Below the pieces are notes generated by a model. It was not told the DNA's origin and made no database searches. It saw nothing but the letters and a program-made list of their open reading frames with translations. From Chloroflexota bacterium (lineage in GTDB: Bacteria > Chloroflexota > Dehalococcoidia > GIF9 > AB-539-J10), in contig JACAEN010000026.1 of NCBI GenBank assembly GCA_013388845.1, forward strand, positions 37,328-101,327: DNA of 64,000 nt, in the 5' to 3' direction. Made by a program: the position numbers and the translations under genes. This document shows, one piece after another, positions 13,306 through 49,322 of this stretch (position 1 is the first letter of the stretch; the number at the start of each line of letters is the position of its first letter).

Positions 13306-13731
13306 TTACTTTTGCCTGCTCGGCACCAATTTCGGAATGTGAAACTTGGTTCTAAGATTCTCCCATCTCCCCATAGATTCCGGGGGAATTATCTCGTCTG
13401 GAATGTACTTTCCTACTCCAGCCAGGACAGCACAGACCTTTCTGGAGTTCGCAACTTCGTCAGGGACGTACTCGTCGGCGGTAGCTATAAGGTTAGAGAG
13501 GAGCCTCCGAGGAGCCAATCTCTCGACCCACTTAATTGCGAAGGAAATTAGCCTATTTGGCACACGTTTATCCAAAAAGTTAAGGGCGAAAAGCAACAAC
13601 CTATCGGGGGCGTATTTATCCACTATTTTCACAAAAAGACGGAACCCCTTCTTTGCCAGGGACCTGATTATAAAATCAAACTTGGGCTTTTTTTCCTGTA
13701 ATGCCGTGTCCTCTGTCATGTCCTCTCTCAC
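13306..13731 (-). CDS. hypothetical protein with internal ~15-aa tandem repeats
   Basis: 141 aa. The repeated motif is KYAPDRLLLFALNFL / KRVPNRLISFAIKWV / ERLAPRRLLSNLIAT / DEYVPDE / KYIPDE. It sits at the head of the FAS-like operon. Confidence 0.4.
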   Translation of the reverse strand: MREDMTEDTALQEKKPKFDFIIRSLAKKGFRLFVKIVDKYAPDRLLLFALNFLDKRVPNRLISFAIKWVERLAPRRLLSNLIATADEYVPDEVANSRKVCAVLAGVGKYIPDEIIPPESMGRWENLRTKFHIPKLVPSRQK

Positions 13732-13799
13732 CGAGATATTATATTTTTATCATTTTTACTGCTATTTGTCAATCACGATAACTTACCTCTACCGCTGCG

Positions 13800-14061
13800 G
13801 AGGCTGAGATACATGGGTAATACTCATGGCATGGTTAGTAGTGATACTAAGTTAGCATGAAGAGTTACGAGATGACAAAGCCGGTCAGCTTCTCCCCCGA
13901 TGCTAATTGGAGAAAAACCATTGTCCCGACCTGTCGCGATAACTTCAACCGCCCGCACCAATCACTTGGCTACCTTGTTCTATGCAGCATAATGAAAAGC
14001 AACTTACCAAGATGTGTAGTCCAGTGTTACCCGTGTGGTCGGCCAGCACGCGGTATTGACA
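13800..14061. repeat. ~250-bp dispersed repeat, copy 1 (3' end = TTGACA)
   Basis: About 80-85% identical by eye to 27901-28166 and 48701-48929. It begins ..gctgagatacatgggtaa and ends ..gtggtc(a/g)gccagcac..attgaca. There is no conserved ORF across the copies. Confidence 0.6.
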
Positions 14062-14083
14062 CTTCCTTCACTATTGATATAAT
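14056..14083 (+). promoter_or_regulatory. sigma70-like promoter (TTGACA-16-TATAAT); -35 contributed by repeat copy 1
   Basis: ttgaca 14056-61 and tataat 14078-83. It is ~185 nt upstream of the 14269 ORF. Confidence 0.4.
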
Positions 14084-14268
14084 ATCTCATGCAATAGTAG
14101 TGTAAGACTAATGTGCAGTTGAAGTCAAATGTGTGCATCAGAGGATTGTCATAATTCTCATCAAGCTCAGTCGAGCATATATAGACCTGTGAATTCAGCT
14201 CTCTCTTCCTATAGCGACGAAATTTGCAATCTGCGTCGACCTGGTCAGAAAAGGAGACAGGAAACTCC

Positions 14269-14535
14269 ATGCCATGTAGAATCGGAATAACCACAGACCC
14301 GGAAGGAAGACGGGAATACTGGCAAAAGCAAGCCGCAGGTTTTGACAATTGGCAGATACTGGAAATCTTCAGAAGCAGAGCGGCAGCGAAGGAATACCAG
14401 ACCGAGTATGCCTTAAGACATGGATGTGAGGCAGCACTAGGCGATCTCGATGCGCCTGTCACAGCTAGGGAATTAGCGACTGAGCACGACTGGTGGTATG
14501 TCTACCACTTTGATTACGTCCTCAAGGCAGACTAA
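14269..14535 (+). CDS. hypothetical protein
   Basis: 88 aa (MPCRIGITTDPEGRREYWQKQ...). An AAGGAG RBS lies ~10 nt upstream. The track start 14224 has no RBS. Confidence 0.35.
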   Translation: MPCRIGITTDPEGRREYWQKQAAGFDNWQILEIFRSRAAAKEYQTEYALRHGCEAALGDLDAPVTARELATEHDWWYVYHFDYVLKAD

Positions 14536-14769
14536 TCAGATGCTGAGCAAACCGCATTGAAGTCCCTTTCCTTGGCCTTCACAGAACGATTATGGTGACA
14601 AAAGGGAGGAGAGACCTCCGTCAGCTATCCCGGGGACACAACACCTAATTTGCACTAGGCCTAGTCCTTCACCTTGTGAAGGATGGTGTCCCCGGAATTA
14701 CAAAAATAATCCCTCGCTCAGTCGGTGGCGACCTGCATCACGGTCTGACTTAAAGAGGCGGAAGCAGAG

Positions 14770-16086
14770 TTAAGCTGGCTTCTTGAGCTTTCCCGGGCCA
14801 AATGAAGAGTAATCCAGGTCATAAAATTGCCGGCATACGGTAAATAAACCATACTGCACGCCACCTAAAACTATTTTGGCTTCCGCAGAATCACGATAAT
14901 ACTTCTCGTAGTTGTTTTCACGGACATAACCGAAGGAACCCATGAGCTCCATCCCTCTCAGGATTAGTTCTGACGCTTTCCTGGTAATAAATACATGCAC
15001 CGCATGTCCTTTAGCTGCCATACTTACCGAATCCCAGGGGCCGTAAATCTCCCGATGGTCAAACTGATAGGCCAGTTCCAAAAAGGCGGCCCTGGCCACA
15101 GTTATTACCGATGCCATCTCGCCCAATATGACAGCCGATGAAAGGTGCTGGTTGATTGGTTTGCCGCCTACTACCCTCTTTCCTGTATAGTCAAGAAGGA
15201 CATCGAAGGCTCCTTGCAAAATACCTGTGGCATGCCCCGAGTTCATAGCCATAGGAGCAGCCAAGATTTCTTGAAAGATAGCCCAAGCTTCAGGCCCCTG
15301 TAGTCCCCACTCCTTGGGCACCCTGACATTATCAAAATAGGTAGAGGTGTTTCGGTCAGCTTGCATGCCACATTTGACCTCAAATTTGCCATGGGAAACG
15401 CCAGGCCAGGGTTCGGGAACATAAATCAAGGCAAAGCCATCTATCCCCAGCCTCGGGTCCATATTACAAACCACGCAATTGAGGTCAGCTATGCCACTAT
15501 TAGATGCCCAAAACTTGGTCCCGTTTATTACCCATTCGTTACCTTCAAGTTTAGCCCTCACCCCTATCGTTCTGCCTTCATTCAAGGTATTCTCAATATC
15601 AACGGCCGACTCGACTTCGCTAAAGTTCATGCAGGCAACGGCTAACTCTTTGCCGGTGAACTTGGGAGCAAACTCATCAAGCACCGCTTTCGCCCATGCT
15701 TTTGCCCGCCGAGAAAAGGGGCCGATATAGGCTGTAAAAGCCGGTTGCCACCCCCAGTCGGTGCAGGCACTGTGCATACTTATGCCATAGTCGCCGCGCC
15801 CTATCTGCTCTTGCCTTAAGGCAGCGCCAACAACGGTACTCCTCTCCCCAGTGCCACCATACTCCTCCGGTATCATGCTTTTCTGGCAACCAAGGTCTAC
15901 CTGTAATTTCTTCAGGATGGGAGTAATTATTTTTTCATGTGTTACGTCATCATCAATCTTGGCGCGAACTGGCATAATCTCCTTGTCAGTAAAATCAGCA
16001 AACACCTTCTGCAGCATCCGTTGCTCTTCATTAACAAAACACTCCGGGTATTGTAATTTGTACCATTGACTGCTCTGATTTAACAC
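14770..16086 (-). CDS. acyl-CoA (or acyl-ACP) dehydrogenase family protein
   Basis: 438 aa with the ACAD fold and a TKFWASNSG motif; the C-terminal helical domain is present. Confidence 0.75.
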   Translation of the reverse strand: MLNQSSQWYKLQYPECFVNEEQRMLQKVFADFTDKEIMPVRAKIDDDVTHEKIITPILKKLQVDLGCQKSMIPEEYGGTGERSTVVGAALRQEQIGRGDYGISMHSACTDWGWQPAFTAYIGPFSRRAKAWAKAVLDEFAPKFTGKELAVACMNFSEVESAVDIENTLNEGRTIGVRAKLEGNEWVINGTKFWASNSGIADLNCVVCNMDPRLGIDGFALIYVPEPWPGVSHGKFEVKCGMQADRNTSTYFDNVRVPKEWGLQGPEAWAIFQEILAAPMAMNSGHATGILQGAFDVLLDYTGKRVVGGKPINQHLSSAVILGEMASVITVARAAFLELAYQFDHREIYGPWDSVSMAAKGHAVHVFITRKASELILRGMELMGSFGYVRENNYEKYYRDSAEAKIVLGGVQYGLFTVCRQFYDLDYSSFGPGKLKKPA

Positions 16087-16396
16087 TTATCCCTCCTTTG
16101 AATGCGCACTTCTTGTCAAGTTCTGCACTTCGATATTAGATTCCTTCGGTTAATAGATGCTCTAATCCATGATTACCCTCCTTCCCAATCTTTTTTAGCC
16201 CTCCTTTGCTATGTAATACACCGTCACCCATGTTGAAAAACTCGTTATCCAAAGTACTGCCGCCAGTGTGAGCCAAAGTATTACCTATTCAACGAGGCTT
16301 GCAAGCCTTGTCCAGAGAGTCTGATAGATAGTCAAACTCATGCCTGAAGGCTTCCAATTTACTTCGTCTCTTATATTTAATGCCTTAGTCTGGTAG

Positions 16397-17146
16397 TCAA
16401 ATAGCAATTTCCTGCCTCAAGGCTTCCACGATTCCCTTAACTTTTTTCTTATGTTCCTCTCTACCTATAGTGTAGGAATGCGGAACCCAATTCATGTCCT
16501 GCAGATTCTTCACTATATTGGGAAGCAAAACCCGGGGGATGGATATAAGCAGCAGACCCTCCGGAAATAGCCTTCTTGACCTCATGCCGAAACTAAAACC
16601 GGGCATCATGAAATTCAATTCGCCACTTACATATGGGTAAATATATAGCCAGGCGCACGCTGCCACCGATGTCCCCTTAGCGGACCACATATTCCCCGTC
16701 GTATAGCTGTTTGCCCTCAGTATGACTTCTGCTTGACTCGGGTCGGCGGTGACAATTAATACGTCTGGCTCGAATGACAGTTTGTCTAAAGGAGAGAAAG
16801 TAACGTAGTTAACGGTATCCTTAGCCAGTCTCGGAATGAACTGATAGATTCTTCTGTTGGCACGTGCTTCCTTAAAGACTTCTAACTTAGGTCCTACTCG
16901 TCCGCTCTCGAAAATTGGGTCACTATCCACCATACCCAATATCAGCGGCCCTATACACGTGAAGTTCTCTTTTGTTACATAAAAAGTGCTGCCATCTTGT
17001 GCTTCTACAAGCATCTCACAAAAATCTAGAATCTTGTCTAACTTTTTAATTCCATCCGGTTTAGTAGGTAAGAACTTAACACCTACGGGTTTCCTCTCAA
17101 ATTTAAATTTGTTGAATATGGATAAGTCCTGTTGTATCGAACTCAC
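16397..17146 (-). CDS. DUF169 domain protein
   Basis: 249 aa. KPVGVKF...FCE...G..F....E.F.C.GP is consistent with DUF169 (COG2043). Confidence 0.55.
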   Translation of the reverse strand: MSSIQQDLSIFNKFKFERKPVGVKFLPTKPDGIKKLDKILDFCEMLVEAQDGSTFYVTKENFTCIGPLILGMVDSDPIFESGRVGPKLEVFKEARANRRIYQFIPRLAKDTVNYVTFSPLDKLSFEPDVLIVTADPSQAEVILRANSYTTGNMWSAKGTSVAACAWLYIYPYVSGELNFMMPGFSFGMRSRRLFPEGLLLISIPRVLLPNIVKNLQDMNWVPHSYTIGREEHKKKVKGIVEALRQEIAI

Positions 17147-17186
17147 ATCAATCTCCTTTTGGTTTCAGAATATGCCTGAGCGTGAC

Positions 17187-17969
17187 TTACTGCACTACAT
17201 GGTGACCGCAATTGACAACAAGCGTGTGCCCGGTTATCCCACTAGACTCGTCTGAAGCCAAGAACACTGCAGCAGCAGCTACCTCAGCTTCTTCAGTCGG
17301 TCTCTGGAGAGAATAGTTTGCAGTAATCTTGCTCATTAACTCTTCAAAAGGAACACCCGTAGCCTCGGACCTGCCCGTTACCACATTAGTAAGACGTTCT
17401 CCCCTGACCGCAGCAGGGCTAATGCAGTTGACACGAATGTTGTATTGTCCCACCTCGATAGCCAGTGTTTCGGTCAATCCAATGATCCCCCACTTAGAGA
17501 CACAGTAAGGACTTCTCATAGGATACCCAAACCTTCCCCCATCGCTACCCATGTTTATTATATTGCCCTTTCTGCGCGGAATCATGTGTTTAAGCACTTC
17601 CCTGGCACACAGCATACTCCCGGTTAGATTAATGGCCAGCACCTCGTTCCAATCCTGCAGTCTCAGGTCAACGACATTAACAGTAGGTCCAGCAATGCCA
17701 CTATTGTTAACCAGTATATCGACCTTGCCATAGTCATTAAGGGTTTCGGCTACCAGCCGCTGTACTTGCTTTTCATCAGAGACGTCGGTTTGTATGGCTT
17801 TTGCCCTACCTCCTCCTGATTTAATCTTCTCAACGGTCTCATCTAACCTCGAGACTGTCCGAGCGGCTATGACTACTATTGCCCCCTCATAAGCAAAGGC
17901 CATCGAGATAGCCTTGCCGATACCTCTCCCACCGCCAGTAACGATAGCTACTTTATCTTTTAATCGCAT
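17187..17969 (-). CDS. SDR family oxidoreductase
   Basis: 260 aa with TGGGRGIGKAI, NNSG and YCVSKWG (YxxxK). Confidence 0.75.
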   Translation of the reverse strand: MRLKDKVAIVTGGGRGIGKAISMAFAYEGAIVVIAARTVSRLDETVEKIKSGGGRAKAIQTDVSDEKQVQRLVAETLNDYGKVDILVNNSGIAGPTVNVVDLRLQDWNEVLAINLTGSMLCAREVLKHMIPRRKGNIINMGSDGGRFGYPMRSPYCVSKWGIIGLTETLAIEVGQYNIRVNCISPAAVRGERLTNVVTGRSEATGVPFEELMSKITANYSLQRPTEEAEVAAAAVFLASDESSGITGHTLVVNCGHHVVQ

Positions 17970-18139
17970 GTATTGTACCTCCCTTAAGCGCTAACTTGAT
18001 GTCTATATAATTCTTATATAACAAGCCGTGGTCGCCCAGCAGGCTGCAAAACAGACATATGGTCACGCCTCAACGGCACACACGCGACGTAGAGCATCCC
18101 TTCCGCTGTCTCTTTGTTAATTTATTTCTTTAATCGAGG

Positions 18140-18925
18140 TCAATGGCTGTACCAATCGGGGTAGATTTGTGTAAGAATTACAGACGGGTCGCACAGAGGT
18201 CCAAGATACATGACGGGATATCTGATTCCTCTTTTTCGAAGGGCTTGCAAACCTTCGACCGCCTTGGCCATCATTCCCGGTGGCAGCGCCATAACCATTT
18301 CATCTTCGGTAACAGTGCCGAATGCTCTCTCTCCCATGCAGGGAATAGCCAGGGCAGGCTTGCCAGTGGTATAACACTGAGCTAAGCCATCGGCGCAAGA
18401 GCCTTCACCGATGAAGAAAAACTGAAAGCGCTCGTAGTCTTTAAACTGGAGCCCGTTCATCAGCAACATCATCTGGGCAGGATTACCGTAGATTAAGATA
18501 ACGTCAGGGGCAAACTTCACCGAACCTAGTGGGGCGAGCACGATGGCCTCTCCAGGCGGAACCAGGGGATATACCACCATCTGCCTTCTGGCTTCTTCCA
18601 CGTTGGCAAACCAGGTATTGCCGAAGGCAGTTGCCTCCCAGGCGACCTCTTTTTTAGTAGTAGCTGCCAGACCAGAGATTCGAGCACAGCGCTCACCGAG
18701 GTTGTCTCTTGTCAATCCTACAGTCATGCCTCCCATTCGAGCCAACGCTGGTGCTTGGCAAAAAGAAGCTCTTCGATTGAGTCGCATCACGCCCGGTATT
18801 TTCTCCAGCTCTTTTACTTTCTCCAGTCTCTTGTAGGCAACGGGGGTTGTTTTGAGACGAAGCAAGCACTCCATCTCTTGGGTAAGCTTTGCCCAGTCAA
18901 CCACTGTAGCTTCTTTTTTCTTCAC
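18140..18925 (-). CDS. DUF169 domain protein (second copy)
   Basis: 261 aa, related to 16397..17146 (...VAYKRL...FCQ...G...E.C...). Confidence 0.55.
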   Translation of the reverse strand: MKKKEATVVDWAKLTQEMECLLRLKTTPVAYKRLEKVKELEKIPGVMRLNRRASFCQAPALARMGGMTVGLTRDNLGERCARISGLAATTKKEVAWEATAFGNTWFANVEEARRQMVVYPLVPPGEAIVLAPLGSVKFAPDVILIYGNPAQMMLLMNGLQFKDYERFQFFFIGEGSCADGLAQCYTTGKPALAIPCMGERAFGTVTEDEMVMALPPGMMAKAVEGLQALRKRGIRYPVMYLGPLCDPSVILTQIYPDWYSH

Positions 18926-19261
18926 TTGTTTCCTCCCTTTTTAGTTCGTTATTTAGCAAAACAATGATAAGCAGCTTAGCATGTGATTGTCAATATTACA
19001 CGCTCGGTTTTGTCAATTGGCCTTTCATGAGCGAACCAAGTTAAAGCTCTAAGCCAGTCTAAGAGACAGAAGTATTTGGGATTCGATTGAAGTATCCAGT
19101 GATTCATAGGCATTCAGTCTCCAAATCCGCGGCTGAACCACCAGCCAGCCAAAACATAAATCTTGCTCCCTCTTAAGTATGGCACTTGCTAGGTCAGTGA
19201 AGTCTGAGAATAGCTTGAGGCAAGTCCTGTAAAATGCTATTGTATTAGGTGGCTTTCCATC

Positions 19262-19346
19262 GGGGAAGTGTCGGAATTGGCAGACGAGCATGACTTAGGA
19301 TCATGTGCTGAAAGGCGTGGGGGTTCGAGTCCCCCCTTCCCCACCA
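19262..19346 (+). tRNA. tRNA-Leu (anticodon UAG)
   Basis: The acceptor stem GGGGAAG/CTTCCCC pairs correctly. The D-stem is TCG/CGA. The anticodon stem CATGA/TCATG closes a CTTAGGA loop, giving anticodon TAG. It has a 13-nt type-II variable arm, a GGGGG-TTCGAGT-CCCCC T-arm, discriminator A and an encoded CCA. Confidence 0.85.
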
Positions 19347-19388
19347 GTATAGGTACCTAGAAACCGTGATAGATTAAGGAGTCGCAAG

Positions 19389-19955
19389 ATGAAAGTCATA
19401 GGTATAGTCGGCAGTCCCAGGAAGAATGGCAACACAGAATTGTTAACCAAACATACGCTTAAAGCAATCTCTGAAGAAGGGTTGGATACTGAGCTTATTC
19501 GCTTAGCTGGCCTGGAAATAAAACCGTGCACTGCCTGTATGGCCTGCAAGAAACAAGAGCTTTGCTCTATCAAGGATGACCTATTTCCTATATACCTCAG
19601 AATGAAAGAAGTCGATGGTATAATTCTAGCTTCACCGGTATATTATGGCTCAGCTACGTCGCTGATTAAGGCACTTATGGAGCGTGTTGGCTACATCGCA
19701 CACTGGAATGGTGAACCCTTCCACGGTAAAGTTGGTGGCCCACTGGTGGTGGCGCGCCGCGCCGGCCAGAACCTCACAATCGCTCAACTTACCTTGTGGT
19801 TTCAGATTCTGGGGTTCTTTATTCCTGGCTCTACGTACTGGAATGTGGCTTTCGGCCGAGAAAAAGGCGAAGTTAAACAGGATGAAGAAGGACTCCAAAC
19901 AGCCTGGAATTTTGGCAAAAATATGGCCTTTCTAATCAAGAAGTTGAGCGCTTGA
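19389..19955 (+). CDS. iron-sulfur flavoprotein (Isf) / NADPH-dependent FMN reductase family
   Basis: 188 aa with a flavodoxin-like N-terminus (IGIVGSPRKNGNTE) and the compact Cys motif C-x2-C-x2-C-x5-C (CTACMACKKQELC). Confidence 0.65.
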   Translation: MKVIGIVGSPRKNGNTELLTKHTLKAISEEGLDTELIRLAGLEIKPCTACMACKKQELCSIKDDLFPIYLRMKEVDGIILASPVYYGSATSLIKALMERVGYIAHWNGEPFHGKVGGPLVVARRAGQNLTIAQLTLWFQILGFFIPGSTYWNVAFGREKGEVKQDEEGLQTAWNFGKNMAFLIKKLSA

Positions 19956-20038
19956 CATAATCACACAGTCGGCGAGATTGTGTGAATAACACATTACCTG
20001 CTTTCTCAGACTTTCCAAGGAATCTACCAGCGGTGCCA

Positions 20039-20992
20039 TTATAGGCCTCTGAGAAATTCAGGCCGGAGCAAAGAAGGGTCTCTGGCATCCAAGACTGCTT
20101 GTATTTGCCTGAGCATCCTAGCTTTGTCTTGCGGTAATCTTCCACGGACGGAAAGGTAGTTTGAGGCGTGCATGGAGCTGAAGAAGCAATCGGTAAAGTG
20201 GGAATCCTCTATGATTAGCTTTAGTTCCTCCAGCGACTGAAAAGGAGAAAGGGGATGGAATTCACCTCGTTCTCGTTGCTCGTAGAGTGGGGTGCCGGGA
20301 ACGAAGGTTAAGGTTAGGGCTCCCACATATTCTGGGTCAATTTCACTGAGAACTCGGGCTGTCTCCAACGCATGCTTCTGGCTTCCCTCGACACCACCAA
20401 GTCCCAAAATTATCGTTATAGAAGAGATTATCCTGGCTTCCTTTACTTTCTTTCCTGCCTCTATCAACTCATCTGAAGTTGCCCCTTTACCTATCTTCCG
20501 GAGAAGTTCATCATCACCGCTCTCCAGCCCGGTATAGAAAATACCCACTTTGAGCTGCTTTAATTCTTTGAGCTCATCTACACTGCGGCGCAGAATATCC
20601 TGCGGTGTGGCGTATGTGCCAACCCTTTCGATAGAAGGCAATTTTTCATTCAAGTACTGGAGAACCTCTCTCAATTTGGGAAAGGGGTAAACAAGAGCAT
20701 CGCCATCCTGAAGAAATACCTTTTTGCCGTCCCAACCTTGAGCTATGTCATATACCACCTTAGGAACATTAGGAAGCCGAATGCCCTTTCGCGTGAATAA
20801 GGCTAGAGCATCTATTTCATTCTTGACGTCCTCAACGTCTCGTATCCGGAGTTTTGAGCCATAGTACATACAGAAGGTGCAGGTGTTGGTAGAACACCCG
20901 CTGGTTAGTGGTAGAAAATAGCTGTTCCACTCGCTGGGAGGTCGGATAATCTCAGGTCTCTCGAAGCTCATGTGCCGATTTAATTTTCGCAC
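20039..20992 (-). CDS. radical SAM domain protein (non-canonical CX4CX2C motif)
   Basis: 317 aa. GCSTNTCTFC lies near the N-terminus, there is a glycine-rich SAM-binding region (FLQDGDAL), and a TIM-barrel-length core. No SPASM domain. Confidence 0.6.
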   Translation of the reverse strand: MRKLNRHMSFERPEIIRPPSEWNSYFLPLTSGCSTNTCTFCMYYGSKLRIRDVEDVKNEIDALALFTRKGIRLPNVPKVVYDIAQGWDGKKVFLQDGDALVYPFPKLREVLQYLNEKLPSIERVGTYATPQDILRRSVDELKELKQLKVGIFYTGLESGDDELLRKIGKGATSDELIEAGKKVKEARIISSITIILGLGGVEGSQKHALETARVLSEIDPEYVGALTLTFVPGTPLYEQRERGEFHPLSPFQSLEELKLIIEDSHFTDCFFSSMHASNYLSVRGRLPQDKARMLRQIQAVLDARDPSLLRPEFLRGL

Positions 20993-21110
20993 AGTACCGC
21001 AGCGGTTTTCAGGTACTGTTGCAAGCCTATTTTATCACCGAGGCAAGCTGGCCTCAAGAAAATACAACATTGCCACAAGCAACCCACACCTTTCCACTTC
21101 CTCTGCTTCC

Positions 21111-21905
21111 TCAATCAGCTTCCATCTTGGAGAAGAAGTAAGAACCTAATGTTGCTAAAGCCAGACACACTATAAGAAGAACAGTGAAATCAAGCCAGAG
21201 CGGAAAGGCGGCAACGCCAATAAGAGTATGCCTCAGCCCATCCACTCCGTAAGTCAAAGGATTGATGTACATTATGTATTTCAGCCAGGACGGCATAGCC
21301 TGCACAGGGAACATGGCACCTGAGAGTAGAAATATGGGAAATACTATTAAATTCATTATAGCCATGAAGCCTTCTAGATTGCCTAACTTGGTGGCAATAA
21401 TCAAGCCAAATCCCGTGAATGCGGCACAGGTCAGAATCATAATTAGTATGGCCAAAAAGAATCCTGGGACACTGGATAATTTGACCCCCATGGCTACGGC
21501 TATTCCCACGATGATGAGAGCTTGAACTATGGTTGTCGTTATGCCACCCAAGCTCCTACCCAGTATAACGGAAAAACGACTGACGGGAGCCACTAAAACC
21601 TCTTTGAGAAAGCCGAATTCTTTATCCCAAATAACCGATGCCCCAGACATGGTACCAGCAAATAATAGGGTCATGCCCACTATTCCAGGAGCCAGAAAGT
21701 CAAGGTAACCTATGCCTTCCAGCCCCGGTATTTGCCGGACAGGCACGAAGCTCATAGGCAATCCCAGAAAAGCCAGAAAGAATAGAGGCATCAATATTGA
21801 ACTAACTATTCTGGCCTTTACCCTCAAAAATCTCTTCATCTCCCGCAGCCACATGGTATAAATTGGCAGCGGGTCTATGAGGCGCTGGGCTCCGATTGCT
21901 CGCAT
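21111..21905 (-). CDS. ABC-2 type transporter permease
   Basis: 264 aa with six predicted TM helices. It is translationally coupled to the upstream ATPase, with 1 nt between them. Confidence 0.7.
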   Translation of the reverse strand: MRAIGAQRLIDPLPIYTMWLREMKRFLRVKARIVSSILMPLFFLAFLGLPMSFVPVRQIPGLEGIGYLDFLAPGIVGMTLLFAGTMSGASVIWDKEFGFLKEVLVAPVSRFSVILGRSLGGITTTIVQALIIVGIAVAMGVKLSSVPGFFLAILIMILTCAAFTGFGLIIATKLGNLEGFMAIMNLIVFPIFLLSGAMFPVQAMPSWLKYIMYINPLTYGVDGLRHTLIGVAAFPLWLDFTVLLIVCLALATLGSYFFSKMEAD

Positions 21906-21906
21906 G

Positions 21907-22923
21907 TTATCTCTTGCCTCCGCTCCTTCTCATCCAGGCTTTCCAGAATTCTTTCAGATTTCCTTCCTCCTCCCTTATAGTCCTGCCAGTGTAATAATGT
22001 AGAAAAGTATCCTCCAAACTGGGCTTATATAATTTGATTGATGATATAACAAATCCACGACTATCGGCAAAATCAATGAGCTCCGGTATTCTTTCCTCGC
22101 CGCCATCGATACTCAGCTCCAGTGAGCCGTCACGTGCTTCAATCTTCGTTATCCAGTCGAACTGCTTTAGCGAATCCGCCAGCCTGGCGTTGCTCTCCTG
22201 AGCTACTTGTAGCGAAATCAAATTCAAACCCACTGCCTGCTTGAGCTTTTCCGGCGTATCCATGGCTACTATGCGACCGTGGTCTATGATAGCCACCCGG
22301 TGGCACAGATAATCCGCCTCTTCCATATAATGGGTAGTCAGGATTATGGTTATGCCTTCTTTCTCATTTAGCAGCCTGATGTAATCCCAGAGGTCTCTCC
22401 TGGCCTGCACATCCAGACCCAAAGTCGGCTCGTCCAGAAACAGGACTTTAGGATGGGTCAGAAATCCTCGGGCAACCTCAAACCTGCGCTGTGTTCCGCC
22501 AGAGCATTCACTAATCCTCATATTCTCCTTCCCCTTCAGATCCAGCAGAGCCAGCACCTCCGCGATTCTCTTCTCTCTGGTTCTCCTGTCCAGATGATAC
22601 ATCCGGGCATGAAAATCCAGGTTTTCCTTACCGGTCAGAAAGGTATCAATAGCTCGGTCTTGAAACACAATTCCTGTGCACTCTCGGACCTTATCTCTTT
22701 CTCGGACGATATCATAGCCACAAACCTTGGCTGAGCCTGAAGTGGGATTGAGTATGGTGCAGAGCATCTTTACCAGCGTTGTCTTGCCAGCGCCGTTGGG
22801 GCCAAGGAAACCAAATACCTCTCCTTCCCGGACACTCAAGGTAACATGGTCGACAGCTACCAAGCCATCGAACTCTTTGGTCAGACCTTCAGTTTTGATT
22901 GTAATCGGGATTACATTATTCAT
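21907..22923 (-). CDS. ABC transporter ATP-binding protein (ABC-2/DrrA-like, with C-terminal extension)
   Basis: Walker A (GPNGAGKTT), the signature LSGGTQRR, Walker B (LFLDEPTLGLD) and the H-loop (THYMEEAD). Start chosen at MNNVIPI (22923) rather than the upstream track start. Confidence 0.8.
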   Translation of the reverse strand: MNNVIPITIKTEGLTKEFDGLVAVDHVTLSVREGEVFGFLGPNGAGKTTLVKMLCTILNPTSGSAKVCGYDIVRERDKVRECTGIVFQDRAIDTFLTGKENLDFHARMYHLDRRTREKRIAEVLALLDLKGKENMRISECSGGTQRRFEVARGFLTHPKVLFLDEPTLGLDVQARRDLWDYIRLLNEKEGITIILTTHYMEEADYLCHRVAIIDHGRIVAMDTPEKLKQAVGLNLISLQVAQESNARLADSLKQFDWITKIEARDGSLELSIDGGEERIPELIDFADSRGFVISSIKLYKPSLEDTFLHYYTGRTIREEEGNLKEFWKAWMRRSGGKR

Positions 22924-23869
22924 GGTCTTCGTCTGGCAACTTTCTCCCAACATAATGGAGGAAGACATCCTCCAGGCTGGGCTTGTGCTCTCCAATCGAG
23001 GAAATAGCGAAGCCGCGCTGCCGAGCCAATCTGACTACCTCGGGTATCTTCATCCCCTTGTCGCTTATAGTTAATTCCAGTTGGGCGTTATGCTGATGAA
23101 TCCGTCTGACCCAGCTCATTCCATTAAGCAAGCTGGCAAAGTCCTTAGCTAGAGCCTCCTGCGAAAACTTGATAGAAAGGACGCTGCTACCCAAGGAATC
23201 TCTTAGTGCCTGGGGTGTATCCGCCCTCAGAATCTTTCCATGGTCCAGGATAGCTATTCTATGGCAGAGATAGTCCGCCTCTTCAACATAATGAGTGTTG
23301 AGCAGCACAGTCGTACCGTGCTCTTCGTTCAATTTCTTGACATAATCTCACAATAGCCTCCTCGTCTGCACATCCAAGCCCAGGGTTGGCTCGTCGAGGA
23401 ACAGGACTCTAGGAGCATTCAACATGGCCCTGGCTATCTCCAGTCTGCGCTGCATGCCGCCGGAGTAATACTTCACCAATGTATTCTGTCTATCGCTTAA
23501 CCCCACCAAGTCCAGAGCCTGAGATATCCACTCATCCCTCACCCTTTTGGGAAGGTGATACAATCTGGCGTGGAAGTCCAGATTTTCTTTCGCTGTGAGA
23601 TTGATGTCCAAGCTCAGTTCTTCAAAAACAATGCCTATTGATTCCCGAACCTTGCCTCGCTCTTTGGTGATATCGTACCCAAACACCGTAGCTGTCCCGG
23701 CAGTGGGATTAAGCGCTGTCGCTAGCATCATGATAGTGCTGGTCTTGCCCGCTCCGTTAGCGCCCAGAAAGCCAAAAACTTCTCCCTCCTCAACCTCAAA
23801 TGAAATATGGTCCACGGCCAGCACACGACCAAATATCTTGGTCAGGTTGTCAGCTCTTATTGCCTTCAT
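22916..23869 (-). pseudogene. tandem paralog of ABC ATPase interrupted by in-frame TGA (Trp codon TGG->TGA)
   Basis: The N-half 23348..23869 ends ...LGLDVQTRRLL*, and the C-half continues in the same frame as DYVKKLNEEHGTTVLLNTHYVEEADYL. The intact paralog has W at this position (DLWDYIRLLNE). Confidence 0.6.
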
Positions 23870-24449
23870 TGTCCGTGCTACTTCCCAGAACCAGTTTTTG
23901 ACCGAGGCGAAATGCATCTTGTAGAGCTTCACGATTTTCTTCAATTTGAGCTTTGTTATCAATTCCCCTGACTAATAAATCGGCAAAATACCTTACACCT
24001 ATGGCGTCGAAAAAGTATTTCACCGTGAGCACTGCGCCATCAAAGAGCTTCTTCCCTCGAGTAGCTCCAACCGAGATGAATAGCCCTCTCCGCGCTCTCG
24101 CATCCTCTTTTCCTATACCCAACACATGCCTTCTCATCCAGAGCGCCTGACATCTATCTACCACAGCTTTCGTCTGGCTGGTAATGCCGTAGAAGAATAT
24201 GGGTGAAGCAAGAATGATATGGTCGGCTTCCAGAAGCTTATCGTAGAGCAATTGCATATCATCCTTGATAGCACAGTTGCCATCTTTGCGACAGGCATAT
24301 ATTTCCAGGCAAGGTGAGATTTTGAGTTTAGAGACCAGTACTTTCTCCACCTCAGCTCCAGCTTCTTGGGCACCTTCCAGCGCCTTATCCAGCAGGATTT
24401 CGGTATTGCTGTGCCTCCTTGGGCTGCCCATAATGCCTAATACTTTCAT
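23850..24449 (-). CDS. flavodoxin-like NADPH-dependent FMN reductase family protein
   Basis: MKVLGIMGSPRRHSNTE, and overall similarity to the Isf/FMN reductase fold. It lacks the compact 4-Cys motif. Confidence 0.6.
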   Translation of the reverse strand: MKVLGIMGSPRRHSNTEILLDKALEGAQEAGAEVEKVLVSKLKISPCLEIYACRKDGNCAIKDDMQLLYDKLLEADHIILASPIFFYGITSQTKAVVDRCQALWMRRHVLGIGKEDARARRGLFISVGATRGKKLFDGAVLTVKYFFDAIGVRYFADLLVRGIDNKAQIEENREALQDAFRLGQKLVLGSSTDNEGNKS

Positions 24450-24459
24450 ATTATTATCC

Positions 24460-25542
24460 CTATACACCGTATCTATCTCTCAGTATGTGCGACAGCTCAG
24501 GCAAGTAGGCAAATGCCTTTTCCACAATCCCTTCCTCAGAGCCAAGGGCGGGCTGACACTGGCTTACCTTCTCATTCACTATCCCCATCTGGCTTGTATC
24601 TCTGAGCAGGCACCTGGCAGGAGCCACCAGTGCCTGCCTAGCAATTTGGTTCACAGATAAACCGGTATGTTCCGAGATTACCTCCCAGTAATCTGAAAGC
24701 GTCGCCGCCAGCCTTTCTGGTGTCTGCGTCGCCAGAACTGTAGGTTCGGTAGGAACAATGCCCCACGAGATAATTCCACCTTTTTTGATAAATTCAGCCA
24801 CGGTAGCAGCATATTCCTTGGGCATAAACCCAATTTGATAAGCGTCGAAGGATAGAATTTCCACCCTCAGCTCCAACAGATAGGGCAAATTCACCTCGGC
24901 ACAGAGATGCACCCCTTTGGGACCTTCCTGCCCAGCCACAAAACTATGGTAGTCCTCTTTAGCCTGTTGGTCATTATAGCCCGAAAGACCGCTAAATACA
25001 TAACCCAGTCCTGGCTCGTCCAGCCAGACAAAGGCATTGGGATTCTTTTCCTTAAGCGCCCGATACTGGACATTGGCTTTCTTCTGCATAAAATCAAACA
25101 AAATAGTCCTCACCACATCGTTATAGATGATGGGCTTGAGGTTCTCGTCAAGCACCTTAAAGCCGAAACTCATGGGACCGATGTTCTGTCCCCTGATAGC
25201 TCTATAGCCTCCAAGCTCCTTCGAGAGAAACTTGTGGAATACTGCCGAATACTCAGATGTGAGAGTGAAGGTCTCCGGACTATCCATTTTCGCAAAATAA
25301 TCGTCGAGCTCTTGTTCAAATCGGCCAGTGTCAAAGGTAAGCCTCCCTCTATCAAAGTCAATGGCTATGCCCGGAAAATTCTGCGATGCTTGAACATACA
25401 TATCTTCATACAAGCTCACTTTGGGAAGCTGCGGCCAGAATGGAATATCCAGGCTCAAGGCAAGCTCCAGTGCCCGCTCCACATCCCGATGAGGCATTAT
25501 TCCCATAGCGGTCGTGCCGCATCTCGCCTCAAATGCTATCAT
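24460..25542 (-). CDS. MetE-like (UROD/MetE superfamily) zinc methyltransferase; possible core methionine synthase
   Basis: 360 aa with VWLDEPGLG, an H-x-C motif (VHLCAE), and a late Cys (APARCLL) resembling the MetE zinc ligands. The short length is like the archaeal and Dehalococcoides core-MetE. Confidence 0.5.
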   Translation of the reverse strand: MIAFEARCGTTAMGIMPHRDVERALELALSLDIPFWPQLPKVSLYEDMYVQASQNFPGIAIDFDRGRLTFDTGRFEQELDDYFAKMDSPETFTLTSEYSAVFHKFLSKELGGYRAIRGQNIGPMSFGFKVLDENLKPIIYNDVVRTILFDFMQKKANVQYRALKEKNPNAFVWLDEPGLGYVFSGLSGYNDQQAKEDYHSFVAGQEGPKGVHLCAEVNLPYLLELRVEILSFDAYQIGFMPKEYAATVAEFIKKGGIISWGIVPTEPTVLATQTPERLAATLSDYWEVISEHTGLSVNQIARQALVAPARCLLRDTSQMGIVNEKVSQCQPALGSEEGIVEKAFAYLPELSHILRDRYGV

Positions 25543-25681
25543 GAATTTCCAGTCTCTCTTCCCACAAATATCCCATAAATCATAACACGGACGTAAGTTA
25601 GTCTCGGAGCGAGAGTCCCCTTCCGAGGATTAGATTCTTTCCGATTGGTAATGTTGGACTTCTTTTTACCTGCGCTAAACT

Positions 25682-27586
25682 TTATATTCCCAGCTTTTTT
25701 CGATTCGCTTCTATGTGGGCCAAGATAGCATTGGCAGCCTGGACGGGGTCCTTTTCGACATTCAGTATACCGCCAGTTAACTGCCTACAGTCTTGTGTCA
25801 ACAAGTGAACCAAATTCGGTGCGCCGGTAACAGGGGGCACAGGATTCACATAGGTATAAAGACCAAAAGCCAGAGCAAAAATGGCATCAATAGTCGCTTT
25901 CTGTTCCATATACTCAGGGGCAACGGCAGCCACAGGTAGTTGGGAGACAGGTACATTGCCCAGAGCGCTGGATAGACTGGCCAGCAGATCAGCAATACGC
26001 CCGGTATCGGTGCACGTTCCGTAACTCAATACCGGCGGTATGCCCAAAGTCTGGCAGAGACCCTTAAGACCATTGCCGGCAAACTCGCTAGCCTCGGGGC
26101 GGCATAAACCTGCTACCTGCATGGCCCCATTGCCACAGCCCACAGACAGGACAAGCAGGTCGCGCTTAATCAGTTCCTTAGCCATCCGCACACTGTGGAC
26201 GTCCTGGCCGGTGTCTCTCAGAGTAGTGCATGAGACAAGTCCGATCACGCCCCGGATAGTACCGTCTTTGATTACCTTCAGGAGCAGCTCCAGAGAGCCA
26301 CCCAGGGCTTCAACTATGCTTTCTAAGGAGAAGCCGACTAAGGCTTCGTTCATCGGCAAACCTGTAACCGGCGGCACTAAGGCACGGCGTTCCTTAAAAT
26401 TCCCTACGGCCATCTGTAACAGCTGGGCTGCCTGTTCTTCAGCCTTTTCAGGTTCATAGTTGATACGCTCAGTAATGCCCTCGAAAGCAACTAGGTCGCT
26501 GACCGGCACCAGCTTTATTTTATATCTCTTGGCATAAGCGGGGTCGATAGGCATGGAGCAGTTCATATCGCAGGCAAAGAGGTCAACACAACCACTGCCG
26601 AGAACAGTCTCCTGCATTATCCAGTTACCGGTAAAACCATAGAAGGCGTCATCCATTTCCCATCTTTGAATCATCTCCTGCCCGGTCTCGATGTTGGCAA
26701 TAACGCGCAATCCCTTTGCCCCAACCGCCCGGGCTTTATTCTGCCATTCCGGCTTTCTAGCCAACTGAACCATGGCGAAACCCAAGAAGGGCTCATGGCC
26801 ATTGGGCAAAGCATTAACATAGTCGGGGTCAAGGACCCCGAGGTCAACACGCATCTTATGTGGCTTGGGCAGACCGAACATAATATCCTGGCAGTACTCA
26901 TTGACAATTTGACTCTGGTAAGCCATGGCTATGCTCAGGCGCAGTGCTTTCAGTGCCAAGCTGACATAATAGCCATCTACATTGGTGAGGCAGGAGCTTG
27001 TGGTACGCATCATCTCGCCGTATATTCCGCCAGGAAACAAATCCAGATTTTTCCAGATTTTCTTTCGTTCGTCGGGGGCTAGGGCTTCAACTATCTGGCT
27101 CGGCTCATCAGCTTTACGATTGAAGTCAGCTTCAACAAAATCGCAGAGAGCCAACGCTGTTTTCCCGATTGTGCCCGAGGTGGCTATCCCCAGCCTAGCA
27201 GCAAATGTCTTCAATTTGTCTTTTTCGATTATTCTAAAAGGAGTTTTACCTCTAGCTGTAGCTCGCAGAGTCTTGATGGTCTGCTCAGTGTGGTAGTGAT
27301 ATGTTGAAGCTCCCAGGACATTCCTGAAGAGCATCATACGCATCGCCATACCATCCCCGGTGATGCCACATACGCCTCTTTTGTCCTTGGCAACATCAGC
27401 GCGACACGGCCCGTTGGAGCATAAGTCACAGCGAACTCCTCCCATACAGAAGGGACAACGCTGGTCGGGATTGCCTCCCATTCCTTGGGCTTCGTATCTG
27501 TCCCAAATATTACTCATGCCATCTTTCTTAATCCTGTCATATACTCGAAGTACGGACTCGTGATATGAAATTCTTTGTTTCTCCAT
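25682..27586 (-). CDS. cooS: anaerobic carbon-monoxide dehydrogenase catalytic subunit (Ni-CODH, CooS/AcsA family)
   Basis: 634 aa with N-terminal Cys clusters CPFCMGGVRCDLCSNGPCR (D/B-cluster ligands, GPCR motif), and the size and architecture of CooS. Confidence 0.8.
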   Translation of the reverse strand: MEKQRISYHESVLRVYDRIKKDGMSNIWDRYEAQGMGGNPDQRCPFCMGGVRCDLCSNGPCRADVAKDKRGVCGITGDGMAMRMMLFRNVLGASTYHYHTEQTIKTLRATARGKTPFRIIEKDKLKTFAARLGIATSGTIGKTALALCDFVEADFNRKADEPSQIVEALAPDERKKIWKNLDLFPGGIYGEMMRTTSSCLTNVDGYYVSLALKALRLSIAMAYQSQIVNEYCQDIMFGLPKPHKMRVDLGVLDPDYVNALPNGHEPFLGFAMVQLARKPEWQNKARAVGAKGLRVIANIETGQEMIQRWEMDDAFYGFTGNWIMQETVLGSGCVDLFACDMNCSMPIDPAYAKRYKIKLVPVSDLVAFEGITERINYEPEKAEEQAAQLLQMAVGNFKERRALVPPVTGLPMNEALVGFSLESIVEALGGSLELLLKVIKDGTIRGVIGLVSCTTLRDTGQDVHSVRMAKELIKRDLLVLSVGCGNGAMQVAGLCRPEASEFAGNGLKGLCQTLGIPPVLSYGTCTDTGRIADLLASLSSALGNVPVSQLPVAAVAPEYMEQKATIDAIFALAFGLYTYVNPVPPVTGAPNLVHLLTQDCRQLTGGILNVEKDPVQAANAILAHIEANRKKLGI

Positions 27587-27900
27587 GGCAATTCCTCCTT
27601 TCGCTTGTCGCTACTCTCTAAGCTACAGTCTGATTCCCGAATAATGGTGAAGGATAGTATATTTTGTAAATAAGAGCAAGATTCCAAGAGGCACCATGCA
27701 AATTAACCATACTTTATGTCCTGATTTCTTAGATAACAAAGCGTAAACCTGCTTCTAGTCAAGGTTAGAGAACAAGCACTGGGCAGGTAACAAAAACTAG
27801 CCTGCGCTCGAGCACCAAGAGGGTTCCAATTGGCTACTATATCCTCTACCCCAATGCATAATATAGCGACACCGGGTACTGAACGAGGACATGAGCTGTG

Positions 27901-28166
27901 AAGGCTGAGATACATAGGTAACATCCATGGTATGGTTAGTAGTGGTAGTAAGTTAGCATGAGGAGTTACCGGGAGGAGAAAGCCGGTCAGCGTCAACTCC
28001 GATGTTAATCCGAGAAACCGCGTTGTCCCGACCTGTCGGGATAACTTCAATCGACCGCACCAATCACTTGGCTATCTTGCCCTTGTGGAGTATATCGAAA
28101 AGAAACTTGCTAAAATATCTTCCCCAGTGTTACCCATGTGGTCAGCCAGCACGGTTATAATTGACA
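27901..28166. repeat. ~250-bp dispersed repeat, copy 2
   Basis: The same element as 13800-14061. Its terminal ttgaca at 28161-66 serves as the rpsU -35. Confidence 0.6.
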
Positions 28167-28189
28167 CACTTAAGTGACTGGGGTAAAAT
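28161..28189 (+). promoter_or_regulatory. promoter TTGACA-17-TAAAAT for rpsU (very short leader)
   Basis: ttgaca 28161-66, a 17-nt spacer, and taaaat 28184-89. The rpsU ATG is at 28203, so the leader is only ~6-8 nt. Confidence 0.55.
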
Positions 28190-28202
28190 ACACTGTTTTG
28201 AT

Positions 28203-28379
28203 ATGGCTGATGTAAGACTTGGTTCAGGAGAGAGTTTCGAGGCCCTGCTGCGTAGATTTAATAGGCAGGTGCAGCAAGACCGTATTTTAGCCGAAGTTCG
28301 CCGCCGCAAGCATTATGAAAAACCTAGTGAAGAGAGAAGAAAGAAAGCGGCAGCGAAAAGGCGAAAAAGTTTAAGATAG
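28203..28379 (+). CDS. rpsU: 30S ribosomal protein S21
   Basis: MADVRLGSGESFEALLRRFNRQVQQDRILAEVRRRKHYEKPSEERRKK matches S21. The track ORF began at the TTG that is actually the -35 hexamer. Confidence 0.85.
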   Translation: MADVRLGSGESFEALLRRFNRQVQQDRILAEVRRRKHYEKPSEERRKKAAAKRRKSLR

Positions 28380-48684: not shown

Positions 48685-48700
48685 CTTCTTAGCTCTATGC

Positions 48701-48929
48701 GGAACCTGAGATACATGGGTAACACTCATGGTATGGTTAGTAGTGATACTGACTTACCATGAGGAGTTACCAGTATAAGAAAGCCCATTGTCTCGACCTG
48801 TCGGAATAACTTCAACCGCCCGCACCAATCACCTGGCTACCTTGCCGCTACGGAGTATATTGAAAAGGAACCTACTAAGATGCGCAGTCTAGTGTGACTG
48901 GTGTGGTCAGCCAGCACACGTAATTGACA
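48701..48929. repeat. ~250-bp dispersed repeat, copy 3 (with ~40-bp internal deletion)
   Basis: The same element again. Its terminal ttgaca at 48924-29 forms the padR -35. Confidence 0.6.
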
Positions 48930-48952
48930 ACAGAATTAGCCAATGCTATAGT
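48924..48952 (+). promoter_or_regulatory. promoter TTGACA-17-TATAGT for padR
   Basis: ttgaca 48924-29 and tatagt 48947-52, with a GAGGTG RBS before the ATG at 48984. Confidence 0.5.
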
Positions 48953-48983: not shown

Positions 48984-49322
48984 ATGATGAATTATGGGCG
49001 TGAGCTGTTGAAAGGAAACACTGACTCCCTACTGCTTTCTTTAATTAGCCGTCAGCCTACCTATGGCTATCAAATAGTAAAGGAACTGGAGAAAAGGAGC
49101 AATGGGTATTTCCAATTTAAGGAAGGCACTCTTTATCCTGCCCTCCACCGCTTGGAGCGAGACAATCTTATCACTGGTAAATGGCAGATACTACCTAATG
49201 GACAGCAAAGACGTTATTACTACATAACTGAAAAGGGGAAGCAGGTCCTAGCTAACAGGTTAGCTACCTGGCAGGATTTTTCTACGGCAGTTAAAGCAGT
49301 TATACAAGCGGAAACAACCTAG
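48984..49322 (+). CDS. PadR family transcriptional regulator
   Basis: 112 aa with a winged-helix PadR motif (PTYGYQIVKELEKRSNGYFQFKEGTLYPALHRLE). Confidence 0.8.
   Translation: MMNYGRELLKGNTDSLLLSLISRQPTYGYQIVKELEKRSNGYFQFKEGTLYPALHRLERDNLITGKWQILPNGQQRRYYYITEKGKQVLANRLATWQDFSTAVKAVIQAETT

Follow-up and report, generated by a model that had tools for sequence, protein, structure and literature searches.

The TnGBS ICEs, the ISLre2 family and the ISKra4 group insert in one orientation, 13-17 bp upstream of the -35 box of sigmaA promoters (Brochet 2009, Guerillot 2014, PMC3942029). These elements are moved by Mutator-like DDE transposases, their right inverted repeat lies on the promoter-proximal side, and the behaviour has been read as a means of avoiding gene disruption (PMC3942029). 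Oriented insertion is also known from the ISAba32 subgroup of the IS1202 family, whose rve-type transposases are distantly related to those of IS481 and IS3; here a fixed orientation goes with a 5-6-bp duplication abutting XerCD sites (bioRxiv 10.1101/2022.12.17.520857).

Here, we analysed a repeat found in three copies in a 64-kb window (by which we mean the whole stretch of Chloroflexota DNA under study). Judging from sequence comparisons, we consider it probable, at roughly 85%, that the repeat is a relic of an IS481-like insertion sequence (IS) which integrates in a single orientation 5 bp upstream of the -35 box of sigma70/sigmaA promoters. Like TnGBS, ISLre2 and ISKra4, the parent IS inserts in one orientation, keeps a short and fixed distance to a -35 downstream of it and has its right inverted repeat on the promoter side. 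However, the enzyme is rve-type and IS481-like instead of Mutator/IS256-like, the distance is 5 bp with the target-site duplication (TSD) abutting the -35 instead of 13-17 bp, the transposase ORF ends in the target -35, and the hosts are Chloroflexota/Dehalococcoidia, whereas those elements live mainly in Firmicutes. In keeping with the first of these differences, the transposase has neither the Mutator-like (p-MULT) signature motif between domains N1 and N2 nor any Mutator-type domain. With the ISAba32 subgroup it shares the rve-type enzyme, the oriented insertion and a short duplication directly abutting a DNA site that is recognised by a protein. There, however, the sites are XerC/XerD recombination sites with the left inverted repeat (IRL) proximal, while here they are promoter -35 boxes with the right one (IRR) proximal, and the elements and transposases of that subgroup are larger. 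The present IS thus has the target of TnGBS/ISLre2/ISKra4 together with the geometry and enzyme type of the ISAba32 subgroup. In our literature search promoter targeting was reported for Mutator-like elements only, and for no IS481, IS3 or other rve-type transposase. The IS described here would add an unrelated transposase class to the known bacterial promoter-targeting elements. This suggests that the use of a "safe haven upstream of promoters" evolved convergently, with Ty1/Ty3 of yeast as an analogue.

The repeat copies and their parent insertion sequence

An nhmmer search of the 64-kb window with an HMM built from the copies gave three matches, all in direct orientation on the plus strand (13793-14063, E 4.5e-96; 27891-28169, E 1e-95; 48695-48929, E 6.5e-79), and all remaining matches had an E value of at least 0.2. 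The initial annotation had therefore counted the copies correctly, and it was also right that none of them carries a conserved ORF, as no intact one was found upon translation. Copies 1 and 2 are 81% identical, either of them is 69-73% identical to copy 3 with gaps, and the internal deletion in copy 3, estimated before at ~40 bp, measures 36 nt. With the ends set by comparison with full-length IS copies and their flanks, the copies and the parts of copy 1 are as follows:

13796..14050, plus strand: copy 1, a 255-bp internally deleted, MITE-like derivative of a 1.14-kb IS481-like IS
27897..28153, plus strand: copy 2, a 257-bp derivative with a deletion identical to that of copy 1
48698..48918, plus strand: copy 3, a 221-bp derivative with the same junction and the further 36-nt deletion
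13796..13824, plus strand: left terminal inverted repeat of copy 1, TGCGGAGGCTGAGATACATGGGTAATACT, in agreement with the IRL of 34 elements
13872..13941, plus strand: remnant of the transposase 5' end in copy 1, MTKPVS..., originally MRKPAS..., running to the deletion junction
13942..14050, plus strand: remnant of the transposase 3' end in copy 1, NFNRPHQSLGYL...VLP.WSAST, including the right inverted repeat (14023-14050)

The 5'-end remnant was assigned by comparison with P0098/P0013 and intact ORFs, and the 3'-end remnant by translation, by the rve_3/rve Pfam matches of the parent protein and by tblastn of the intact transposase against the window.

A conserved 18-mer was used to scan a genome collection and 30 loci were obtained, 28 of which were chance matches. 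The two true loci (L011 and L025; L numbers denote loci throughout) come from Dehalococcoidia MAGs and match the 3' half of the repeat alone; it was their translation that revealed the transposase ancestry. The 3' half encodes the C-terminus of an rve/rve_3 integrase-core transposase (...NFNRPHQSLGYLTPVEYIEKELAKIRSPVLPMWSAST), translating as NFNRPHQSLGYL..VLPMWSAST, and the parent protein matches rve_3 (5e-16) and rve. In metagenomes we found 439 homologous proteins. Homologues with a complete N-terminus start with MRKPAS..., and the same codons follow a GAGGAG Shine-Dalgarno sequence in the window copies; the 5' half of the repeat consists of the IS left end and these MRKP... codons. Roughly 100 unrelated loci carry the parent IS.

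Full-length elements are 1138-1144 bp long and nine of them have an intact ORF, a single uninterrupted one of 357-368 aa with HTH_23/HTH_28/HTH_32, rve and rve_3 domains (Pfam). The best NCBIfam family is IS481 (NF033577), with 190.5 bits and so below the curated cut-off of 224 bits, followed by IS3 with 106 bits. Apart from this difference in score, the element is much like members of the IS481 family (e.g., IS481 of Bordetella): it has a single-ORF DDE transposase with an N-terminal HTH and an rve core, a length of ~1.1 kb (within the range of ~1-1.3 kb), TG(T/C) inverted repeats (TGT-starting in the family), a short TSD (5 bp, in a subset of copies) and an ORF that reaches the very end of the element. 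A second difference lies in the target, which for IS481 itself is NCTAGN. A PDB sequence search with the transposase returned no match. No stop codon for the transposase ORF lies inside the IS in the intact copies (L095, L097, L107, L084, L101, L111). Of 95 sites, 48 have their first in-frame stop past ...SAST at the third codon; 45 of these stops are supplied by the TGA of TTGACA, so that the ORF appears to rely on the TGA within the target TTGACA as its stop. After copy 1, this TGA occupies window positions 14057-14059.

The window copies hold approximately the first 140 and the last 112 nt of the parent IS (breakpoints of copy 1 on the L095 IS, ~1-140 / 1027-1139), which leaves the first ~22 and the last ~37 transposase codons. 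The deletion junction is common to all three and is found, within 4 nt, in L088 and L103 from other metagenomes, while the deletions in derivatives from other loci have different breakpoints. Both of the parent's terminal inverted repeats are kept, the IRL and IRR of the window copies aligning to those of the 1.14-kb elements; none of the copies encodes a functional transposase, and autonomous relatives with intact ORFs exist (L095, L097, L107, L084 and others), although tblastn with the intact transposase found no autonomous copy within the 64-kb window. We conclude that the repeat is a non-autonomous, MITE-like, internally deleted IS derivative, and the three window copies are probably inert relics. 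The MITE-type nature proposed by the initial annotation was borne out: the repeat is a non-coding derivative of a mobile element which lies 5' of a gene in the same orientation.

Element ends and the promoters beside the window copies

To examine the ends of the element, we searched metagenomes with an anchor placed in the last 26 nt of the IS and obtained 120 loci. IS copies that are 100% identical over the last 200 nt (L117, L148, L128, L097, L149 and others) diverge right past ...GCCAGCACA, and the similarity among them is lost immediately after ...GGTCAGCCAGCACA. The conserved right end of the window copies reads ...GTGGTCRGCCAGCAC(A/G), conservation stops at ...GCCAGCAC(A), 5-7 nt short of TTGACA, and the nucleotides just past the end differ among copies 1, 2 and 3 (cggta, gttataa and cgtaa). 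On the left, the element begins with TG(C/T)GGAGGCTGAGATAC..., at 13796, 27897 and 48698. The terminal inverted repeats are ~28 bp long and of the form TGYG...CACA (pattern TGTGnnGGCTGA...ACATRGGTAACACT), with TGCGG/TGTGG at the tip of IRL and TGTGC at that of IRR'. The boundaries given before had to be corrected accordingly, with the left ones moved a few bases farther to the left and the right ends placed at 14050, 28153 and 48918.

Among 29 elements with both ends, perfect 5-bp TSDs were found in L084 (CTAAG), L095 (ATTTA) and L107 (ACCTC), where ~0.03 perfect matches would be expected by chance, and L031 and L111 match at four of five positions. The right-hand copy of the TSD in L084, L095 and L107 separates the TTG... 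hexamer from the IS end, which makes this hexamer part of the target DNA. TTGACA thus lies outside the element, since identical IS copies diverge before it, TSDs intervene, and relatives without the element keep the rpsU promoter (see below). The initial annotation had taken the copies to end in ...attgaca, which proved to be too far, as the element ends earlier and TTGACA belongs to the flanking host DNA. A site-specific element can mislead in this way, because its conserved target DNA passes for a part of the element itself; the "promoter-donating MITE" would really be a promoter-seeking one.

A recognisable TSD is missing in 22 of the 29 two-ended elements, including the young intact L097 and all three window copies, whose flanks match at 0/5, 0/5 and 2/5 positions. 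A search for terminal inverted repeats and TSDs had been proposed for these copies, and it is only the former that they display. The flanks of copies 1 and 2 are demonstrably reshuffled, as seen in comparison with L159. Recombination, adjacent rearrangement or deletion, and a TSD-less pathway are candidate causes for the copies without TSD. Besides L097, the two-ended elements without a 5-bp TSD include L101, L119 and L086. We also considered TGTCAAT (13768; L031:2876) and ATTGACA as inverted repeats and rejected them, since identical IS copies and TSDs put the ends at TGYG...CACA; the TGTCAA motifs of left flanks are -35 boxes of divergent promoters.

The following features lie directly downstream of the copies; the promoter calls rest on consensus and conservation:

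14051..14055, plus strand: five host bases between the end of copy 1 and the -35, corresponding to the 5-bp TSD position in intact copies
14056..14083, plus strand: predicted native sigma70-type promoter after copy 1, with -35 TTGACA (14056-61), a 16-nt spacer, TG (14075-76) and -10 TATAAT (14078-83)
28161..28189, plus strand: native rpsU-yqeY promoter after copy 2, with -35 TTGACA (28161-66), a 17-nt spacer and -10 TAAAAT (28184-89); rpsU ATG at 28203
48924..48952, plus strand: predicted padR promoter after copy 3, with -35 TTGACA (48924-29), a 17-nt spacer, TG (48944-45) and -10 TATAGT (48947-52); padR ATG at 48984

TTGACA followed by a -10-like hexamer at 16-17 bp is indeed present after each copy, as had been described. 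Copies 1 and 3 end 5 nt from the -35, copy 2 ends 7 nt from it, and the offset of the padR promoter from the end of copy 3 is the family-wide +6. In a promoter scan, the promoter after copy 1 matched at 12 of 12 positions and had an extended TG; the ATG of the downstream gene lies at ~14270.

Some properties of these neighbourhoods may be mentioned. The promoter after copy 1 is separated from an 88-aa ORF (14270-14535) by a ~185-nt untranslated leader (14084-14269) without any Rfam match. The start codon of rpsU (28203) is located 13 nt past the -10 with no Shine-Dalgarno sequence, an arrangement kept in L154, L155, L156 and L159, which suggests that the rpsU mRNA may be leaderless or near-leaderless. 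On the minus strand, a TTGACA (13772-13767) located 24 nt to the left of copy 1 is the -35 of a divergent promoter (13743-13772, minus strand; L159 counterpart 2210-2250) of a 141-aa gene starting at 13731. For copy 3, an exact look-up of the window PadR gave no record, and the region downstream of aroKB orthologues is not syntenic, so that no empty site was available.

Insertion sites, the empty rpsU site and the block between copies 1 and 2

In order to assess the association with promoters across insertion sites, we used 95 independent right flanks from which orthologous duplicates had been removed. Their consensus is N5-TTGACA-N16-18-(TG)nTAnAAT. There is no conservation from +1 to +5, the counts from +6 to +11 are T80 T75 G74 A57 C58 A52 (of 95), 50 sites have G at +27, and TAnAAT spans +29 to +34. 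TTG stands at +6 in 61 of the 95 flanks (control offsets, mean 1.6) and TANNNT starts at +28 to +30 in 75 (control mean 5.5). The offset of the -35 is essentially invariant, being +6 in 57 sites, the spacer is 16, 17 or 18 nt long in 10, 28 and 15 sites, respectively, and an extended -10 TG accompanies 34 of the 75 -10 motifs. This spacer and extended -10 layout is the architecture of sigma70/sigmaA promoters. Left flanks, read outward, gave no signal (2/36 and 4/36). By a crude test, the dominant downstream ORF was co-directional at 66 sites and opposite at 18.

The association is oriented, has a fixed distance and extends to the youngest insertions, that is those whose IS end is at least 98% identical to that of another site: both TTG at +6 and the -10 were found in 12 of 14, a signal at least as high as in older copies. 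It extends also to insertions of the IS into itself. At the nested sites L137 (minus strand, ~1320-1500) and L036 (7860-8045) the right end lies 5 nt upstream of an IS-internal TTGGCT/TTGCCT-N17-TATATT, formed by the codons for SLGYLTPVEYIE; the nested tails at L036 differ in sequence, which indicates insertion and not a slippage duplication. Of the 34 sites that lack TTG, 17 still carry a -10 in register. About 14 of the 95 flanks show no promoter-like motif. Among the motif-less right flanks, those of L038, L088, L105 and L125 share CTGATCTAGTTCAGATAG..GGTGACA directly past the IS end, while the sequences farther downstream differ; this shared flank could belong to the end of some other repeat or represent a different kind of target. 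Taken together, the ~100 insertion flanks amount to an experiment-free map of putative sigmaA-type promoters of uncultivated Chloroflexota, with the pattern TTGACA-N17-(TG)nTAnAAT.

For copy 2, an empty site is available. The rpsU promoter, TTGACA-N17-TAAAAT, is present in the element-less relatives L159, L154, L155 and L156 (YqeY 89-92% identical), and the -35 before rpsU is thus native. These relatives are annotated as Dehalococcoidia. In L159 the left flank of copy 1 is contiguous with the right flank of copy 2: window positions 13690-13795 joined to 28154-28240 align to it gap-free across the junction, and no target duplication is seen. The segments concerned are:

13306-13731, minus strand: 141-aa gene with the divergent promoter
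13796..28153, plus strand: block of 14.36 kb including copies 1 and 2, which form its two ends in direct orientation; compared with related genomes, it is inserted between the promoters of the 141-aa gene and of rpsU

The bracketed segment between the copies is 13.8 kb long and includes a tRNA-Leu (19262-19346). In L158/L159 the genes for KAS and KAS III and a 137-aa gene are syntenic beside rpsU-yqeY; relatives (L159, L154, L155) lack the block and have the 137-aa gene next to rpsU, the two genes pointing away from each other and their -35 boxes standing back to back. The 13.8-kb segment with copies 1 and 2 at its ends thus appears to have reached the region upstream of rpsU by one of two routes, as a composite transposon or through MITE-MITE recombination. 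Both promoters that flank the block are intact, and the pair of MITEs around the translocated segment illustrates how such relics may remodel genomes while leaving promoters unharmed. The clean absence of the block from L159, together with the TSD-less majority of elements, points to recombination, adjacent rearrangement or a TSD-less route as a part of the insertion history.

Competing readings and the proposed targeting mechanism

Insertion sequences are well known to carry outward -35 boxes at their termini, and hybrid promoters arise in this way, for instance, with Correia elements, IS257 or IS1. The initial annotation proposed that the 3' terminus of the repeat has such a -35 and builds a hybrid promoter with a -10 in the flank, which on this reading would be fortuitous, and the TTGACA with a -10 at 16-17 nt after all three window copies agrees with that. 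The repeat is also like Correia/CREE and ISs with an outward -35 in being a short non-coding repeat immediately 5' of genes, beside a -35/-10 pair; it differs from them in that the -35 is not inside the element, as conservation ends 5-7 nt before TTGACA (5 nt in copies 1 and 3). Since 5-bp TSDs separate the IS end from TTGACA, since the unoccupied sites have their rpsU promoter including TTGACA, which refutes the proposal for copy 2, since the flanks diverge, and since chance would hardly supply 75 of 95 flanks with a -10 against a background of 5.5, we regard promoter donation as very improbable; both the -35 and the -10 are native. A variant in which the complete promoter (-35, spacer and -10) travels with the IS as hypervariable cargo at its right end would account for the promoter after the conserved end of most copies. 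It has the least to recommend it of all the readings, as copies with 200 identical nucleotides have neither spacer nor downstream sequence in common, the TSD positions put the promoter outside the element and the empty site keeps it.

Nor does the repeat behave as a structured sRNA or as a cis-regulatory RNA or protein-binding module shared by the three downstream genes. This suggestion, also made initially, could appeal to the internal palindromes and to the fact that all copies are intergenic and co-oriented with the genes downstream. The palindromes, however, are explained otherwise: catgggtaatactcatg lies inside the left inverted repeat, and gtcccgac-ct-gtcgggat, which adjoins the deletion junction, represents transposase codons ~17-23. 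No curated Rfam covariance model matched at the gathering threshold, and at E values up to 10 only chance hits (MS2 hairpin, snoRNA) were seen. As the conserved stretches are the transposase codons and inverted repeats of a 1.14-kb IS that occupies some 100 unrelated loci, and relatives have the same rpsU operon context without the element, a regulatory module is hardly credible. More weight, though still little, is due to random insertion followed by selection, in which a copy would persist only where it does no harm or even some good, namely directly upstream of a promoter. Insertions inside genes are certainly purged, and the co-occurrence of -10 and -35 could partly reflect survival in true promoter regions. 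However, tolerance would permit any intergenic position, yet a single offset of +6 is seen in 57 sites, for the right end only and in a single orientation. Moreover, the youngest copies show a signal at least as high as the older ones, and the nested insertions strike a promoter-like motif within an IS copy, where no host gene is at stake. Such selection is therefore unlikely to be the main cause, although purifying selection and integration preference are not fully separable by sequence analysis. We infer that the association with promoters reflects target choice at integration: the parent IS would target promoters and not build them.

The targeting reading can be put as follows. The parent IS, with one HTH + rve DDE transposase (357-368 aa) and ~28-bp inverted repeats, would integrate in a single orientation with its right end 5 bp upstream of a -35 hexamer, so that the 5-bp target duplication abuts the hexamer. 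The -35 would serve as the anchor, read by the transposase directly or through promoter-bound RNA polymerase/sigma (region 4). The whole promoter would be pre-existing host DNA, left intact downstream of the insertion, and as a result every copy would seem to "end" in TTGACA-N17-TATAAT. The presumed benefit is a "safe haven", in which neither a gene nor a core promoter is interrupted. Against this model stand the 22 of 29 elements without TSD, the ~14 of 95 motif-less flanks, the 7 nt at copy 2 and the sub-cut-off IS481 score.

The two ways of finding the -35 seem about equally probable to us. A promoter-level cue is favoured by the in-register -10 at half of the sites without TTG, and also by the conservation of the -35 at insertion sites, which seems no stronger than is usual in promoter compilations; survivorship can produce the -10 co-occurrence as well. 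Direct reading of the sequence is favoured by the offset, which is fixed to the -35 and not to the -10. By-eye comparison showed no convincing similarity of the IS ends or the circle junction to the target promoter that could be taken for mimicry. The fixed 5-bp geometry makes it testable whether the transposase reads the -35 or the bound RNA polymerase. We lean slightly towards the broader view that an rve-type, IS481-like transposase evolved sigma70/sigmaA-promoter targeting independently of the Mutator-like TnGBS/ISLre2, anchored on the -35 with a 5-bp offset, possibly via sigma region 4 or RNA polymerase, and that it became committed to this target to the point of giving up its own stop codon for the TGA of TTGACA. 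If true, the element would be a compact natural machine (357 aa, 28-bp ends) for insertion upstream of promoters, and its copies would constitute a ready-made promoter atlas for uncultivated Dehalococcoidia.

The IS tail itself contains an outward promoter-like motif, TTGGCT-N16-17-TATATT, 91 nt from the right end and within the SLGYLTPVEYIE codons, which could act as a weak outward promoter. In the window this TTGGCT-type motif is located at 13966-13993, 28073-28101 and 48837-48865.
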